From positions 1,597 to 65,596 of the forward strand of contig JAIOPO010000004.1 in the NCBI GenBank assembly GCA_021413905.1: a stretch of DNA of 64,000 nt. Reading direction: 5' to 3'. A model generated the notes under the pieces. It made no database searches, was not told the origin of the DNA, and saw only the letters and a program-made list of their open reading frames with translations. Source of the DNA: Candidatus Nomurabacteria bacterium. Its GTDB lineage: Bacteria; Patescibacteriota; Minisyncoccia; Phycocordibacterales; UBA9973. Every line of letters starts with the position of its first letter. Position 1 is the first letter of the stretch. Made by a program: the position numbers and the translations under genes. Positions 49,983 to 55,925 of this stretch are shown one piece after another.

Positions 49983-51758
49983 TTACATAATATCAACAAT
50001 CCTAAGCCTCAGCTCTTCACGACCGCGGAAACGAGATAAATCAAAAGTCGCCAGTAAGTTTACAGACAATCCTTCGGCTAAAGGAATTTTAAAGGAATCT
50101 AAGCCAGAGAAAAATGAAATCGCTGTGGCTTTTTTGTTATTATCGGAAAAAATAATTTCTAGATGTTCTTGTGAATTATTTTTTCCGAATTTTTTCAATT
50201 TTTCTATTTTCACATTTTCAAAAAGAAAAATAGGCTTTGGATTTTCACAACCAAATGGCGCCATTTTTTCTATTTCTTTCCAATTTTTCATATTTACGTC
50301 AGTGAGAGATAATTTTAAATCAAAAAGTGTGGGAGATTGCTTTTCTGTAGCCGAGGACTGTCTGAGCGTAGCGAGTTCCGCAGGCAAAGAAAAAATATCA
50401 CCTGCACTTTTTGCACGAATATTTACAAAAGAACTAGACAAAGCTTCCTCCAAAAAATGCACTTTTTCTGTATGCACTGTAAATCCTCCCGCGCCTTCGT
50501 GCCCGCCAAATTCCAAGAAATACTCACGTGTTTCTGTCATCAACTCAACAACAGACACTGAGCCATCTGACCGACAAGAACCTTTTATAAAATCATTCTC
50601 ATCTTTACCCCACACAAACACGGGCTTTTTATGTTCATCACAAATCTTACCCGCAACAAGACCGAGCACACCCACTTTCCATTCCGGATGCCCTATAACT
50701 ATCACTTCGTTCATTTCACGTTTCTCGAATTTTTTATTCACATCTTTCATAATACCAGCAACCATTTTTTTTCTTTCGTCATTTATTTTCGTCAAATGAT
50801 TTGCCAAAATTCCTGCCTCCGTTTCATCTTGCGTTGCCAACAATTCAAAAGCTCGGCGCGGATCATCCATACGCGATGCAGCATTAAGTCGAGGCGTCAC
50901 CATAAAACCAATATCGTCTTCAGAAATATATTTCTGATCTATGCTCATCTTTGCCAAAAGTTTTTGCAAACCCGGACGCGGAGATTTCCTAAAAACTTTC
51001 AAACCAAAATATGCAATCACTCTATTTTCTCCCAACAACGGCACCATGTCAGAAAGTGTCGCTAGCCCCGCCATATCAAGCAACCATTTCTCCCAAGAGA
51101 GAGGCGCGGGTATTGTGTTTTCTGTAGCCGAGGACTGTCTGAGCGTAGCGAGTTCCGCAGGCAAAGGAAACACAATACCCGCGCCTCCATACTTCTTCAA
51201 AAAACCTTGCACCAATTTAAAAACAACCCCAGACCCACATAACATTTTTTCCGAATATTCGTCTACTTTCGGATTCAAAATAGCATACGCTCGCGGAAGC
51301 TCTGCGTGCGGAATATGGTGATCTGTAATTATAACATCAATGCCGTACACAATAGCTTGAGCTACTTCTGCCACAGCTGTGATGCCTAAATCAATCGTGA
51401 TTAAAAGCTTCACACCGTCTGCGTCCATTTTTTTTACCATTTCCAAATTCAAACCATATCCTTCAGAATTTCTTTGCGGAATATATACTTCAAAATTTTT
51501 ATAATTTAATTTATTAAAAAAGTCATTCAATATCACCGCGCCTGGAATGCCGTCGCAATCATAATCCGCATATACCAATATTTTTTCTCCAGCTTCCATC
51601 GCTTCAAAAATCCGCACGCAAGCTTTTTCCATATCGCGCATTAAAAAAGGATCGTGCATATCGCGTTCATAATTTGGATTTAGGAAAATCTCTTTTTGCT
51701 CGGCTGTTGTAATGCCTCGTTTTTCCAATAATTCATTTAATAGGCTACTTGGTTGCAT
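49983..51758 (-). CDS. recJ: Single-stranded-DNA-specific exonuclease RecJ
   Basis: It has DHH motifs (YADYDCDG, ITIDLGI, ITDHH) and the DHHA1 motif GGHEGAGG. I prefer the start at MQPSSLLNELLEKRGI (51758). The ORF-track extension to 51908 would run across the HIT gene start. Confidence 0.9.
   Translation of the reverse strand: MQPSSLLNELLEKRGITTAEQKEIFLNPNYERDMHDPFLMRDMEKACVRIFEAMEAGEKILVYADYDCDGIPGAVILNDFFNKLNYKNFEVYIPQRNSEGYGLNLEMVKKMDADGVKLLITIDLGITAVAEVAQAIVYGIDVIITDHHIPHAELPRAYAILNPKVDEYSEKMLCGSGVVFKLVQGFLKKYGGAGIVFPLPAELATLRQSSATENTIPAPLSWEKWLLDMAGLATLSDMVPLLGENRVIAYFGLKVFRKSPRPGLQKLLAKMSIDQKYISEDDIGFMVTPRLNAASRMDDPRRAFELLATQDETEAGILANHLTKINDERKKMVAGIMKDVNKKFEKREMNEVIVIGHPEWKVGVLGLVAGKICDEHKKPVFVWGKDENDFIKGSCRSDGSVSVVELMTETREYFLEFGGHEGAGGFTVHTEKVHFLEEALSSSFVNIRAKSAGDIFSLPAELATLRQSSATEKQSPTLFDLKLSLTDVNMKNWKEIEKMAPFGCENPKPIFLFENVKIEKLKKFGKNNSQEHLEIIFSDNNKKATAISFFSGLDSFKIPLAEGLSVNLLATFDLSRFRGREELRLRIVDIM
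50321..50413 (-). repeat. In-frame GC-rich hairpin element inside recJ, copy A (93 bp)
   Basis: It shares a 49-bp core (50341-50389, ttttctgtagccgaggactgtctgagcgtagcgagttccgcaggcaaag) with copy B. The core is flanked by imperfect inverted arms whose outer 9 bp pair perfectly (caaaaagtg / cactttttg). Confidence 0.8.
51101..51187 (-). repeat. In-frame GC-rich hairpin element inside recJ, copy B (87 bp)
   Basis: It carries the same 49-bp core (51118-51166). The core is flanked by a perfect 20-bp inverted repeat: gaggcgcgggtattgtgttt (51101-20) and aaacacaatacccgcgcctc (51168-87). Confidence 0.85.
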
Positions 51759-51794
51759 AAAGACAATTTTAACACAGTTTGATATAATATTGAT

Positions 51795-52205
51795 ATGGAA
51801 GAGTGTATATTTTGTAAAATAATAAAAGGGCAAATCCCTAGCACGAAAATTTATGAGGATGATAAAACCCTCGCCTTTTTGGATATTGCGCCAGTAAACA
51901 TCGGGCACGCTTTAATAATACCTAAAGAACATTATGCAAATATATATGAAACTCCGGAAGACACTATGTCAGACATAATAAAAGTAGCTAAAAAAATATC
52001 TCTCGCTGTGAAAGAAGCAGTAAAAGCAGAAGGAGTAAATATTACAATGAACAATAACCACGCTGCCGGGCAAGTAATATTCCATTCACACATTCACGTC
52101 ATCCCCCGTTTCTCAAACGATGGCTTTGAACTCTGGCACGGTAAAAGAGCATACGAAGATGACGAAATGAAATCTGTTGCTGAAAATATTACTTCAAAGC
52201 TTTAA
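51795..52205 (+). CDS. HIT-family nucleotide hydrolase/transferase
   Basis: It has CIFCKII and the histidine triad HSHIHVIP. Confidence 0.9.
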   Translation: MEECIFCKIIKGQIPSTKIYEDDKTLAFLDIAPVNIGHALIIPKEHYANIYETPEDTMSDIIKVAKKISLAVKEAVKAEGVNITMNNNHAAGQVIFHSHIHVIPRFSNDGFELWHGKRAYEDDEMKSVAENITSKL

Positions 52206-53232
52206 TTAAATTTTTATCATTAAAAAATTTAGAAAGTTTATACCCCCTACAATGAGACAAAATTCCTAAATAAGAAAACTTTGACTCTTTGAATAAATTT
52301 TGTTTCACTTTTCGTAAAATTCTTTTTTTAGTGGAAGTTCGCAAAACTTTATAATGTGTAAGAACTACATAACCAAGAAAATCCACTCCTTGCGATACTT
52401 TTCTAATTTCAACTTTTTTGGGATGTAATTTTAATTTAAGTTTCTCTTCTAAAAATTCGGAAATTTTTGGTAAAAGTAATTCAAGAAAATATTTATCTTT
52501 TGAAACGCACACGAAATCGTCACAATATCTTGCATAATATTTTACTTTTAAAACATGTTTCATAAACTGATCAAAAACATTCATATAAACATTTGCAAAA
52601 AGTTGACTTGTCACATTACCAAGAGGAAGACCTTTGCCTTCTAATTTTTCAAAACTTTTTATAATATTTTCTAAAAGCCATTTGGTTTCCAAGCACTCAA
52701 TTTTTTCAAAAAGAATTTTCTTTAAAATTTCGTGATCTATTGAATCAAAAAATTTAGAAATATCACACTTTAATACCCAAGCATTATTTTTATAATTTTT
52801 TGTTTCTTTTCTTAAAAAACTTTCAAGACGCTCAACTCCCGCGTGAGTGCCTTTATTAAATCGGCAAGCATAAGAATCATAAATAAAAGATGGATCATAA
52901 ATTTTATAAAGTTGGCGAAAAACAGCTTGATGCACTACCCTGTCTCGAACCTGTGCTTTGTGTATATGTCTTATTTTGGGGTCGCAAACATAAAAAGGCA
53001 CATATGGCTCATTTATATATGTTTTTCTTCGTAGAGAAAAATGAATATCCAAGATATTTTTTTCTAAATTAAATTCAAATTTCTGTATATCAGTTTTTTT
53101 ATTTTTTCCACGACGAAACTCTCGCCACGCAGACAAAAGATTGGAAGTGGAAATAATATGATAGAATAAATCACTATGATGACCCCCCCACTTACTTCCA
53201 ATAAAATTATCGAGCTCCCTGTTATTCTCCAT
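52189..53232 (-). CDS. Diversity-generating retroelement reverse transcriptase
   Basis: RT motifs present include VRDRVVHQAV, SYACRFNKGTHAG and KCDISKFFDSIDH. It also has the DGR-diagnostic LPLGNVTSQLFANVY ([ILV]GxxxSQ) and YARYCDDFV (YxDD). A TR/VR pair lies adjacent. Confidence 0.9.
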   Translation of the reverse strand: MENNRELDNFIGSKWGGHHSDLFYHIISTSNLLSAWREFRRGKNKKTDIQKFEFNLEKNILDIHFSLRRKTYINEPYVPFYVCDPKIRHIHKAQVRDRVVHQAVFRQLYKIYDPSFIYDSYACRFNKGTHAGVERLESFLRKETKNYKNNAWVLKCDISKFFDSIDHEILKKILFEKIECLETKWLLENIIKSFEKLEGKGLPLGNVTSQLFANVYMNVFDQFMKHVLKVKYYARYCDDFVCVSKDKYFLELLLPKISEFLEEKLKLKLHPKKVEIRKVSQGVDFLGYVVLTHYKVLRTSTKKRILRKVKQNLFKESKFSYLGILSHCRGYKLSKFFNDKNLIKALK

Positions 53233-53562
53233 GTAAAGAGATTATATAAAATAATATATCAATTGGGAATAAAAATGCCGAAACAAAATAAATTGGGCAT
53301 ACATAAAGTGTTGGAAGAAAAAACATTACTAATACTTACTACATTAATTGATTCAGCACTTAGAAGTAGGCAAGACAAAATACAAACTCTAAATCAAGCT
53401 CGTAGAGATATTGAAGTCTTGAAACATCTTATTCGCCTAGAATATGAATTAAATATAATACAAGAGAAATCTTATATAAATTTATCAGCGATGCTTGAAA
53501 ATATCTCTATGATGACAACCGGTTGGATAAAGTCTCTCGGAACACAAAAGCCCCTCTATTGA
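53176..53562 (+). CDS. avd: Avd-like accessory variability determinant (four-helix-bundle protein)
   Basis: LYKIIYQLGIKMPKQNKLGIHKVLEEKTLLILTTLIDSA...LKHLIRLEYELNII...ISMMTTGWIKSL follows the four-helix-bundle/Avd pattern, and helix 1 needs the upstream residues. An extended -10 (TGATAGAAT, 53159-67) lies 8 nt before the ATG at 53176. The alternative start is 53275. The long form overlaps the RT 5' end by 57 nt on the opposite strand. Confidence 0.72.
   Translation: MMTPPLTSNKIIELPVILHVKRLYKIIYQLGIKMPKQNKLGIHKVLEEKTLLILTTLIDSALRSRQDKIQTLNQARRDIEVLKHLIRLEYELNIIQEKSYINLSAMLENISMMTTGWIKSLGTQKPLY
53241..53246 (-). promoter_or_regulatory. -10 box (TATAAT) 8 nt upstream of the RT start codon
   Basis: The minus strand reads ttTATAATctctttacATG. 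There is no SD, so the arrangement looks leaderless. Confidence 0.4.
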
Positions 53563-53865
53563 GGAGCTTTATGAGAAACTTCTGACGGAGACCGTTGTCG
53601 GAATTACGGTTGTCGCGATTGTCGTTGCTGATGTTGAACTGACCATTGTCGTTGCGGTTCATGTTCATCGCGTTACCGTCTGAATCGAGGGCTCTTTCTG
53701 TGAGTGTCCACCAATATCACCACATATCTTTTTCAAAATATGTTGAATTTTCCGGCACTAAAGCCGTCTCTGTTTGGAATCTAAATTCCCTAGACTCTCG
53801 CAGGCAGTTTCTATTGTTTGGCAAACTGTCATCACATTTTTTAAACGGATCAGCTTAACAGCCGA
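53545..53865 (-). ncRNA. Predicted DGR TR-containing RNA (promoter-proximal spacer, TR, 3' hairpin)
   Basis: The upstream bound is the extended -10 at 53870-53878. The downstream bound is the hairpin GCTCCTC-aata-GAGGGGC (53567-53550) followed by TTTT on the minus strand. The transcript limits are inferred, not observed. Confidence 0.45.
53583..53693 (-). repeat. DGR template repeat (TR), 111 bp
   Basis: It aligns colinearly with 53958-54068 at an offset of 375. In the VR reading frame it contains 11 AAY codons (8 AAC, 3 AAT, hand count). Confidence 0.88.
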
Positions 53866-53869
53866 GTTA

Positions 53870-53878
53870 ATTATAACA
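53870..53878 (-). promoter_or_regulatory. Extended -10 promoter (TGTTATAAT) for the TR RNA
   Basis: On the minus strand, ttTGtTATAATtaac follows the target-gene terminator directly. Confidence 0.45.
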
Positions 53879-53885
53879 AAATTGT

Positions 53886-53926
53886 AAAAAAAAGTTCCCC
53901 TTGAATTAAAAAATCCAAAGGGAACA
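53886..53926 (-). terminator. Rho-independent terminator of the DGR target gene
   Basis: Minus-strand hairpin GTTCCCTTTGG-attttttaatt-CAAGGGGAAC followed by TTTTTTTT. It may also serve as the hairpin that DGR homing often needs just 3' of the VR. Confidence 0.7.
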
Positions 53927-53944
53927 AGATAATAGTCAAGAGGT

Positions 53945-54691
53945 TTAGAAACCTACTTGACGGAGACCGTGGTCGGAAAGACGGCCGCCGCGATGGCCGC
54001 TGCCGATGTAGAACTGACCATAGTCGCGGCGGATCATGAACATCGCGTGCCCGCCTGAATCGAGGGCTGCAAAACGTGTGAGTCCTTTGACATCATACAT
54101 TTTACTAGTCTCAGTCCGATGACGAAAAGCGGCGATGATGCCTTCTTTCGGCACCATAAACTTGGTGCCGGCTTCGATACCGTCATCATAGCTTTTGCCT
54201 AGCATGTCGGGCTCGTCTCCGCCGACGTGGCACATGGGATAGTCGCCTTCGGGGCGCGCTTGCTGTTCGCGAATTGCATCGGTGATGCTGTCGTAATATT
54301 TCCATACAGCATCCTTTCCGAACTTTTTCGCATAGGCTTCAAGTGCCTGATCCTCGGTGATGTCGGAAAAAATAACCTCAAGGCGAGACATTTTTTCAGT
54401 TTTCACCGGCAAAGAAAGTTTCGTCCAGTCAACCTGACGGTTGAAGAATTTTTTGTAAAATATTTCTATCTTACGTTTTTCTTCAGTCCAGTGGTCAACT
54501 TTTACACCGAGAACTTCTTCGCAGAATTTCTCGGTCAGTTCTTCAAGCTCTTTTTTGTCACTCAAGACAAAGTGTTGCGCTTGGTCAAAACTGAAACCTC
54601 CATCGCCCAGCACACGAATAATGGTGCCGGCAATTTTAAAACCAATTGCAGACAACTGCCCCGTGGTTGCGGGTTTTTGCTGATTTGTCAT
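53945..54691 (-). CDS. DGR target (variable) protein, 248 aa, C-terminal VR
   Basis: It contains the VR in its last roughly 41 codons (...ALDSGGHAMFMIRRDYGQFYIGSGHRGGRLSDHGLRQVGF*). A strong SD (AAAGGAGGAGTCTT-ATG) precedes the start. Its GC content and codon usage differ sharply from those of its neighbours. Confidence 0.88.
   Translation of the reverse strand: MTNQQKPATTGQLSAIGFKIAGTIIRVLGDGGFSFDQAQHFVLSDKKELEELTEKFCEEVLGVKVDHWTEEKRKIEIFYKKFFNRQVDWTKLSLPVKTEKMSRLEVIFSDITEDQALEAYAKKFGKDAVWKYYDSITDAIREQQARPEGDYPMCHVGGDEPDMLGKSYDDGIEAGTKFMVPKEGIIAAFRHRTETSKMYDVKGLTRFAALDSGGHAMFMIRRDYGQFYIGSGHRGGRLSDHGLRQVGF
53958..54068 (-). repeat. DGR variable repeat (VR), 111 bp
   Basis: It has 20 hand-counted mismatches to the TR. 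Nineteen are at TR adenines (coding/minus strand) and one is at a TR thymine. It ends 10 nt before the stop codon. Confidence 0.88.
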
Positions 54692-54857
54692 AAGACTCCT
54701 CCTTTAAAAAGAACATTAATTTGTTGAGCCAAAAACCACAAAGGTTATCAAGGGTGCTCATACCCTTAATATCTAAAGTATACACCTTTTAGAGTAAAAA
54801 GTCAAGAGCTAAAAATAGCTGTAAAATAAAGCTTTTCCCTATGTCAGACATATGTAT

Positions 54858-55925
54858 TTATTTCAAAGCTTTAATTCCAGGCAAGGTGCCATTAGCGAGA
54901 AAGTCCAGTGTCGCCCCTCCGCCAGTGGAAACAAAAGAAAATTTGTCTTCCATTTTATTTTCAGAAATTAAAGATACCGTGTCTCCTCCACCAATAATGC
55001 TTTCAGCTTTAGAATTGGCAACCAACTTCAAAACACTTTTTGTGGCTCCACCATTCAATACTTCGTATTTCCCCAAAGGTCCGTTCCAGAGAATCATTTT
55101 AGCTTTCCTTATTATTAGTGCGAGATTTTTTATTGATTCAGACCCAACATCTAAAATGATTTCATCTTTTTGTACTTCAGTTACTTTTTTATTTATAAAA
55201 GTCCCATCAGTTTTTTTTACCACTACATCAGTAGGTAAAATAAGTTTTTTATTATTTATAAATTTATTAATCCCAAAGTCACTTTCATCAACAAGAGACT
55301 TACCCACTTCATAACCTTTCGCTTTCAAAAAGTCATTTACTAGAGCGCCCCCTATGAAAATATTATCAGCGAGATTTAAATACTTTTTAATCAAAGGCAT
55401 TTTAGTGGAAAACTTCGCTCCGCCTAGAATAAACAAAAATGGATGCTTTGGATTTTTCATAACCTTGGAAAGATTTTTCACTTCTTCTTCAAGCTGAAAG
55501 CCCGCATAGCTGGGCAAATATTTTGGAACGCCGACAACAGATGCATGCGCTCTATGAGAAACAGAAAATGCGTCATTCACATAAATGTCTGCGAGACTTG
55601 CCAAATGTTTCGCAAAATCTTTATCATTCTTTTCTTCACCGGGGAATTTACGAACATTTTCAAAAAATTCTATTTTGTTTTTAGGAATTTTAGAAAGAGT
55701 AAAAAAATTTTTAATCACTGGCTCAAGTGAAGCTGTACCGTCTTTACCTAAATGAGTTAGCAAAATTACTTGCGCACCTTTTTTTAATAAATAATTTATA
55801 GTTGGCAAAGATTTGCGAATACGAAAATCATCTTCAACCTTGCCATTTTTAATAGGCACATTGAAATCCACCCTCACGAGAACTCTTTTACCTTTTATGT
55901 TTTTTAATTTTTTGATTGATTGCAT
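54858..55925 (-). CDS. pgk: Phosphoglycerate kinase
   Basis: Supporting segments are RVDFNVP, LTHLG, AFSVSHRAHAS, GGAKFSTK and the C-terminal STGGGATLDFL. Confidence 0.95.
   Translation of the reverse strand: MQSIKKLKNIKGKRVLVRVDFNVPIKNGKVEDDFRIRKSLPTINYLLKKGAQVILLTHLGKDGTASLEPVIKNFFTLSKIPKNKIEFFENVRKFPGEEKNDKDFAKHLASLADIYVNDAFSVSHRAHASVVGVPKYLPSYAGFQLEEEVKNLSKVMKNPKHPFLFILGGAKFSTKMPLIKKYLNLADNIFIGGALVNDFLKAKGYEVGKSLVDESDFGINKFINNKKLILPTDVVVKKTDGTFINKKVTEVQKDEIILDVGSESIKNLALIIRKAKMILWNGPLGKYEVLNGGATKSVLKLVANSKAESIIGGGDTVSLISENKMEDKFSFVSTGGGATLDFLANGTLPGIKALK

Follow-up and report, generated by a model that had tools for sequence, protein, structure and literature searches.

The window analyzed here, a 64-kb stretch of DNA from Candidatus Nomurabacteria (Candidate Phyla Radiation, CPR; 32.8% G+C), holds a complete diversity-generating retroelement (DGR) with its axis on the minus strand. 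The reverse transcriptase (RT) gene of this element and the gene for its accessory protein, avd, are encoded on opposite strands and overlap head-to-head at their 5' ends, and a homopolymeric G·C tract within the overlap is positioned between each ATG and the body of its own gene. Based on comparisons among homologous loci, we judge the chances to be evenly balanced that the tract acts as a frameshift switch, prone to slippage and gating Avd and RT jointly, with the DGR being phase-variable and the window in the ON state. For the broader proposal, in which a single hypermutable tract makes retrohoming phase-variable, heritable and reversible throughout a whole clade of CPR DGRs (thousands of RT homologues), our confidence falls just short of that.

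The template repeat (TR; 53583-53693, minus strand) is a 111-nt direct repeat of the variable repeat (VR; 53958-54068, minus strand) with 82% identity, and 19 of the 20 TR/VR mismatches fall on TR adenines in the minus-strand reading. The VR lies at the 3' end of the DGR target gene (53945..54691, minus strand, 248 aa), inside the final 40 codons of this open reading frame (ORF 54691..53945); a Pfam profile search returned no match for the target-gene product. The RT (53232..52189, minus strand, 347 aa) matches Pfam RVT_1 (E 1.9e-25) and contains LGNVTSQ, an instance of the [ILV]GxxxSQ motif, which we take to be a hallmark of DGR RTs. It is 100% identical to an NCBI protein from Ca. Nomurabacteria (P0023), which identifies the host as a CPR member. 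The avd gene (53176..53562, plus strand, 128 aa in its long form) lies between the TR and the RT and is therefore antisense to the TR-RT axis, as the original prediction had it. That prediction treated the arrangement as an oddity, an 'inversion' that might be an assembly artefact; it is instead architecture B3, the norm for CPR DGRs. Among homologous DGR loci (given L-numbers below), for which junction sequences were gathered from genome and metagenome collections, avd is antisense wherever a retrieved locus still has both the avd-RT junction and the TR, and the overlap is conserved in relatives.

The extent of the overlap follows from the available start codons. The avd frame opens past a TAA at 53167-69, and the only canonical starts 5' of the first predicted Avd helix are the ATGs at 53176 and 53179, of which homologues conserve 53176. 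The RT frame opens past a TAA at 53242-44, and ATG 53232 is the sole canonical start before the conserved N-terminal motif. With the starts fixed at 53176 (avd) and 53232 (RT), the two genes share a 57-nt 5'-5' coding overlap (53176..53232) that includes both ATGs, and each start ATG complements a His codon (CAT) in the opposite gene. Both ATGs are kept in 14 close lineages. The overlap is also present in a tract-less relative (L012); in L004, likewise without a tract, it measures ~17-23 nt if the RT starts at ATG 3980 or 3986, not at ATG 4007. An overlap of 57 nt and the need for start 53176 in a four-helix Avd had both been proposed from the window sequence, and both hold up: no other canonical starts would preserve both helix 1 and the RT N-terminus, and helix 1 (residues 13-33) is encoded upstream of the next avd start, ATG 53275.

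The tract (53183..53189) is poly-C in the avd sense and poly-G in the RT sense (C7/G7, 7 nt), spanning avd codons 3-5 (T-P-P) and RT codons 15-17 (W-G-G). It went unmentioned in the original prediction. Although it is the sole G/C run of at least 7 nt in the window, ~0.45 such runs are expected in 64 kb; C7 is thus non-significant by itself, and the case for the tract rests on comparative data. A pure G tract of 7-12 nt (7 in the window) is found in 17 of 18 lineages, with L012 the only lineage to have lost it; in L045, the tract is a G8 interrupted by a T. The same geometry recurs at 50-58% RT identity (L005, G11; L007, G11; L016, G10; L070, G12; L072, G9). Among the 120 closest RT clusters, drawn from 5,145 with E <1e-60, 77 have a run of at least three Gly in the RT N-terminal tail, and many of the others are called from starts downstream of the tract. 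In the long ORFs of the window, only 8% of Gly codons are GGG and only 5.6% of Pro codons are CCC. The 14 RT bodies that we inspected contain no further G/C run of at least 6 nt, and synonymous divergence between lineages has reached saturation (dS 0.6 to >2). Since the tract stays pure despite the rarity of GGG and CCC and the saturation of synonymous sites, its purity looks to be selected at the nucleotide level.

Tract length sets the reading frame of both gene bodies relative to their ATGs, and all three states occur among the 18 lineages, near one third each. Six lineages are in frame (the window, G7; L001/L011, G12; L061/L062, G9; L016, G10; L070, G12; and L012, which has no tract), eight have one extra base (+1; L002, L010, L005, L072 and the L003, L029, L038 and L045 groups), and four have two extra bases (+2; L055-57, L058/59, L066 and L007). 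At every locus, including the distant L005, L007, L016, L070 and L072, avd and RT are in the identical frame state; because the tract separates each ATG from the body of its gene, gaining or losing one or two bases shifts both genes together. Among the first nine lineages, all out-of-frame loci were +1, a bias that hinted at a programmed +1 ribosomal frameshift on CCC-C; this was dropped as a general account with the +2 states of L058, L066, L055 and L007.

The RT body is open over 302-324 codons in 11 of the 12 out-of-frame (OFF) lineages, the only truncated RT among them being that of L055-57 (179 codons). Ratios of nonsynonymous to synonymous substitution (dN/dS) for pairs of RT bodies from out-of-frame lineages range from 0.05 to 0.18. 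Judged by these sequence comparisons, the out-of-frame copies are not decaying and are under purifying selection. The OFF lineages offer no canonical start for full-length Avd, the body frame being closed off directly upstream by a TGA, and in three of the four +2 lineages (L055-57, L058/59 and L066) there is no RT start before the conserved N-terminal motif.

Differences in tract length are also found between closely related assemblies. Within one lake series (L060-L063, compared over 5.27 kb), the tract reads G10, G9, G9 and G11; beyond the tract, these loci differ at four substitutions just after it (L063) and at one other column. Among L045-L049, the sole variable column in 3.2 kb falls within the tract. 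Such patterns fit a hypervariable tract; under the switch model, its length would change often and reversibly within populations. The tract is also a systematic trouble spot in short-read assembly of these DGRs. The L065 contig ends in G15, L064 and L065 derail or end in G14-15, L006 begins with C51 at the tract, and both L063 and L064 have strings of substitutions directly after it.

In the mechanism that we propose, avd (plus strand) and RT (minus strand) would be transcribed from two facing promoters, the first 57 nt of their mRNAs being complementary. Slipped-strand mispairing at the tract would gain or lose one base pair, and the indel would move avd and RT simultaneously out of, or back into, frame. 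In Bordetella, cDNA synthesis needs both Avd and RT, so one mutable site would switch the entire mutagenic machine; a one-base change in the tract would probably turn avd, RT and the whole mutator on or off, with the OFF state expected to silence retrohoming. Switching would be heritable, reversible and stochastic, a contingency switch atop a diversity generator. The window (C7/G7, both genes in frame) would represent the ON state, and its tract, the shortest in the family, is probably the most stable. Two features of contingency loci are found here: a homopolymer inside the reading frame near the 5' end that is pure against codon bias, and otherwise intact genes whose frame is switched among close relatives by differences in repeat length.

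Several observations weigh against a switch of this kind. Tract length is the same across repeat samples of some lineages (nine assemblies with G10, six with G9 and four with G10), and the window tract is just 7 nt long and identical in an independent assembly (L067). The differences within L060-L065 could be technical, and the patterns in L060-L065 and L045-L049 fit not only hypervariability but also Illumina trouble at poly-G. VRs are the same between samples in OFF and in mixed lineages, so no ON state could be linked with DGR activity; VR sequences are the same across assemblies of one lineage in general, and consensus assemblies hide minority variants. In most +1 lineages, a TTG or ATG in frame beside the tract could still start a shorter RT, and gene callers report a tract-adjacent RT start in most +1 loci; RT may thus be less tightly gated than Avd. 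Finally, Gly-Gly-Gly opposite Pro-Pro-Pro in codon register would alone force G/C purity if both peptides were selected. To this last point it can be countered that the Avd part of the tract falls in a disordered tail, where whole-codon changes of length should be tolerated, and that L012 does without a tract.

The identity and true start of Avd bear directly on the overlap. Residues 20-120 of the avd ORF align with positions 7-106 of the 107 in Pfam bAvd (PF22296) at E 4.2e-9 and 37.3 bits, below the curated 40-bit cut-off, and PF22296 is listed in the precomputed Pfam hits for 21 of 22 Avd homologue clusters. An AlphaFold model (mean predicted local distance difference test score, pLDDT, of 80) has helices at residues 13-33, 42-60, 65-91 and 97-123, preceded by a disordered tail (residues 1-12, pLDDT <50). 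The top PDB matches of this model in Foldseek are 2rld, 2gsc, 4dwl and 8ub8, all weak (E ~0.04, TM 0.48-0.57); we take 4dwl to be Bordetella Avd and 2rld and 2gsc to be structures of the 23S-rRNA intervening sequence (IVS) family. The model predicts that the window avd product has a four-helix bundle fold resembling that of solved Avd.

A start at ATG 53275 (M34), downstream of helix 1, would delete this helix from the bundle. Automatic gene calls nevertheless give an Avd of exactly 95 aa, the M34 equivalent, in 15 of the 22 homologue clusters, and of 90 and 98 aa in two more; the long form is called in only one cluster, P0001 (123 aa, NCBI Prokaryotic Genome Annotation Pipeline, PGAP). The helix-1 codons (IIELPVILHIKRLYKIIYQLGxK) are open and conserved at the protein level in 14 of 14 close lineages. 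Within the avd segment overlapping RT, variation by codon position is 10:5:17, a third-position bias which indicates that the avd frame dominates in the overlap. More distant homologues lack a Met at the site of M34 (LFPKQ in L016, HIPKL in L005, KIPKR in L070). Homologues with Avd starting at 53275 were to have removed the overlap; gene calls mostly do start there, but with helix 1 conserved and a four-helix bundle predicted, we regard the 95-aa calls as a gene-caller artefact and the long Avd as the real protein, and full-length Avd would be required. In L070 (1214-2001), avd is left uncalled by gene callers because it overlaps RT.

Candidate promoters precede both starts. An extended -10-like box, TGATAGAAT, occupies 53159..53167 on the plus strand, 8 nt before the avd ATG, and TGnTAnAAT-like boxes are retained in homologues, where the stretch doubles as RT coding sequence. 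The RT promoter-like site (53269-53241, minus strand; -35 TTCCCA, 17-nt spacer, -10 TATAAT) has 10 of 12 matches, the best in the region, and its -10 ends 8 nt before the RT ATG. Owing to this -10-to-ATG spacing of only 8 nt, both mRNAs are probably leaderless or nearly so. The avd box and its spacing are as first described, and each -10 box does sit within the opposite gene (TGATAGAAT within RT, the TATAAT site within avd). The description of the promoters as 'face-away' is incorrect, in that they are convergent, with starts 57 nt apart.

Four other explanations were weighed against the frameshift switch. Recoding at the RNA level, which we consider rather unlikely as the main account, would proceed by RNA polymerase slippage (on at least 9 G/C) or by a ribosomal +1 shift on CCC-CCC-CCC-C at a poly-proline stall. 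Avd and RT would on this view be produced in frame to some extent in every DNA frame state, with the tract holding expression low instead of imposing a heritable ON/OFF state. This would suit the length of most tracts (9-12 nt, at least that of the RNA-DNA hybrid), the presence of intact genes in all three DNA frames, as if frame hardly mattered, and the stability of tract length over repeat samples of several OFF lineages. The commonest out-of-frame state, moreover, is +1 (8 vs. 4), which could be corrected by tRNA-Pro shifting +1 on CCC-C, an established behaviour. No single shift direction fits, however, given that states 0, +1 and +2 all occur; polymerase slippage would not be efficient on tracts as short or impure as those of the window (7 nt) and L045 (T-interrupted G8, out of frame); and the first 115 nt of the two mRNAs show no stimulatory structure (z = -0.62 and -0.82 vs. 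shuffles). Recoding is also compatible with DNA-level switching, and RNA-level slippage possibly helps DNA-level phase variation at the tract. A degree less probable still is that the overlap itself regulates, interference between facing promoters and pairing of mRNA 5' ends serving to couple or limit Avd and RT, with the tract incidental. The two -10 boxes, each 8 nt before its own ATG and inside the opposite gene, are kept in relatives together with the overlap, which persists in tract-less L012 and conditionally in L004. Conservation of the boxes is not independent evidence, since they lie in the coding sequence of the opposite gene, and this explanation leaves both the purity of the tract and the out-of-frame ATG pairs in two thirds of lineages unexplained; an antisense effect of TR read-through is unlikely, too, given a conserved terminator hairpin (below). 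Antisense pairing or promoter interference may act as an additional layer.

It is also conceivable, but very improbable in our view, that there is no functional overlap: Avd would start at 53275 (95 aa) and RT beside or after the tract, and the tract region would be a divergent 5' leader or a flexible Gly/Pro linker that plays no part in switching. The gene calls are what this predicts, with Avd mostly at 95 aa (15 of 22 clusters, and 90-98 aa in two more) and RTs of 326-334 aa starting at the tract, and some lineages have a weak GGGA/GGGAG Shine-Dalgarno-like element before M34. Against this stand the loss of helix 1 from a 95-aa Avd, when helix-1 residues are conserved as protein (10:5:17), the distant homologues without Met at M34, the long form called by PGAP in P0001, and the lack of any RT start before the conserved N-terminal motif in L055, L058 and L066. 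We give marginally less credence again to artefact or decay, i.e., to out-of-frame lengths being homopolymer assembly errors or the DGRs being dead. Different assemblers and archives yield an identical out-of-frame length, in up to nine samples per lineage, and such repetition across pipelines speaks against the out-of-frame states having arisen by random assembly error. Lesions are limited to the tract while the remaining RT is under strong purifying selection, and error or recent death would have to have hit 12 of the 18 lineages at a single site. Contigs that break or degrade at the tract (L006, C51; L065, G15; errors in L063/L064) and the RT of L055-57, cut to 179 codons, are what such an account has in its favor.

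Between the convergent TR and avd, a hairpin with an A-run and a U-run (53536..53571) straddles the avd stop codon. On the minus strand (53571-53536), it has 12-15 bp and lies directly 3' of the TR; folding 53600-53455 on the minus strand gives z = -3.25, with none of 200 shuffles as good. Such a hairpin is found in 13 of 13 lineages (-15 to -23 kcal/mol), with stem sequences that vary by lineage. For this comparison lineages were folded singly, as RNAalifold on a MAFFT alignment misaligned the hairpin, and a simple terminator scan did not flag 53536-53571. Based on these folds, the hairpin probably terminates transcription in both directions and forms the 3' structure of the TR RNA. As a terminator, it would end the TR RNA at the avd stop, and RT would depend on the promoter inside avd. 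TR read-through antisense to the whole of avd, as originally envisaged, is therefore unlikely, a hairpin and U-run following the TR in all 13 lineages.

Further searches at the RNA level were negative. The avd 3' end was examined for a hidden RNA constraint, which was rejected: synonymous diversity there is not reduced, giving no indication of a long functional RNA that overlaps avd; avd synonymous diversity is lowest at the 5' end, which overlaps RT and the RT promoter. A long-range helix pairing the TR 3' end with the antisense 'MMTTGW' codons of avd appeared in the single-sequence fold and was likewise rejected, its bases being explained by protein conservation, with no covariation. No Rfam match was obtained in 51500-55500 on either strand (E <=1). 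A second terminator-like hairpin (53894..53925, minus strand; 14-pair stem, then TTTTTTTT) lies, together with its T8, ~20 nt past the stop codon of the target gene. It could be a terminator or a post-VR target-recognition hairpin, as found in some DGRs.

The whole DGR cassette is bracketed by a 19-nt direct repeat pair (95% identical), with one copy at the RT 3' end (52189..52207, ...IKALK*) and the other at the 3' end of pgk (54858-54876), the upstream host gene; the pgk and RT products of the window share the C-terminus ...IKALK*. In L058 (~1193 and ~3833, RT-forward orientation), the fusA 3' end is repeated (22 nt exact, extending to ~40 nt with 3 mismatches), and EF-G and RT both end in ...ETIIAARK*. 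This suggests that DGR cassettes insert at gene 3' ends, duplicating them. Closely related cassettes (Avd 70-88% identical) occupy markedly differing neighborhoods (L029, L038, L045/L050/L066, L055, L058, L060), with neighbors including TrwB-like/peptidase M24, cation ATPase, DHFR/thymidylate synthase, RuvA, EF-Tu/EF-G and D-Ala carboxypeptidase/SMC genes. The cassette appears to be mobile or horizontally transferred, though it encodes no integrase. In L060-L065, the VR is 3 nt shorter than the TR through an in-frame indel in an AAC-rich stretch, a kind of non-adenine TR/VR difference described by Wu et al. 2018 (PMC5758913). Beyond the cassette, a RecJ-like ORF (49983..51908, minus strand) has a 65-nt G+C-rich direct repeat (50341-50405 and 51118-51182, 91% identical); both copies are in frame within this A+T-rich gene, encode ...PAELATLRQSSATE..., and may be small in-frame insertions of a repeat element.

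DGRs are the most powerful natural protein diversifiers that we know of. If the tract is a switch, it would offer a simple and general answer to how cells keep such elements in check in a very large CPR clade. The mutator would be OFF in most cells, with a minority turned ON through slippage, and the design would be unusual in that one repeat is read both ways by two overlapping genes. Annotation pipelines systematically truncate or miss avd in these DGRs and often mis-start RT, and some CPR DGRs that surveys class as 'inactive' or 'lacking Avd' may be loci in the OFF phase or with faulty annotation. The switch could be tested with existing metagenomic reads and simple reporters, and would surprise DGR specialists.

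The DGR, Avd and the layout are already known. According to Wu et al. 2018 (PMC5758913), 90% of CPR DGRs have architecture B3, TR-(avd)-RT with avd on the reverse strand, and the window has the same order and orientation (target/VR, TR, reverse-strand avd, RT) in a CPR host. In the portions available, that paper classifies gene order only, with no mention of an avd/RT overlap or a tract. A tract shared within the avd/RT overlap was not found in the searchable literature, beyond the reach of which lies Paul et al. 2017 on CPR DGRs. What is apparently new is the 5' coding overlap with its shared, conserved homopolymer tract and the pattern of frame states.

Among characterized systems, the BPP-1 DGR of Bordetella (mtd-avd-TR-brt) shares with the window adenine-specific TR-to-VR transfer, an Avd bundle and an [ILV]GxxxSQ RT, and by analogy the chemistry is presumably the same. 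In BPP-1, all parts lie on one strand, avd is upstream of the TR and the TR-brt spacer is long, whereas in the window avd and the TR converge on a common terminator-like hairpin, the RT promoter lies in avd, and avd and RT overlap 5' to 5'. Contingency loci with poly-G/C near gene 5' ends are found in Campylobacter, Neisseria and Haemophilus. The loci studied here resemble them in the pure 7-12-nt G/C run near the start, in ON and OFF states among relatives and in intact ORFs under purifying selection; simple-sequence-repeat contingency loci have also been reported recently in phages (PMC12633550). The difference is that here one tract serves two genes on opposite strands and would control a hypermutation machine rather than a surface structure. 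At hifA/hifB of Haemophilus influenzae, TA repeats in overlapping divergent promoters let one repeat control both genes. This is likewise a single mutable repeat that co-regulates two opposed, cooperating genes, but it alters promoter spacing and hence transcription, while the tract described here lies within both coding sequences and would act on the reading frame. Facing promoters tens of nucleotides apart, with complementary 5' ends, are also known from RNA-IN/RNA-OUT of IS10 and pR/pL of coliphage 186; in those systems one partner regulates the other, whereas in a DGR both products are needed together.

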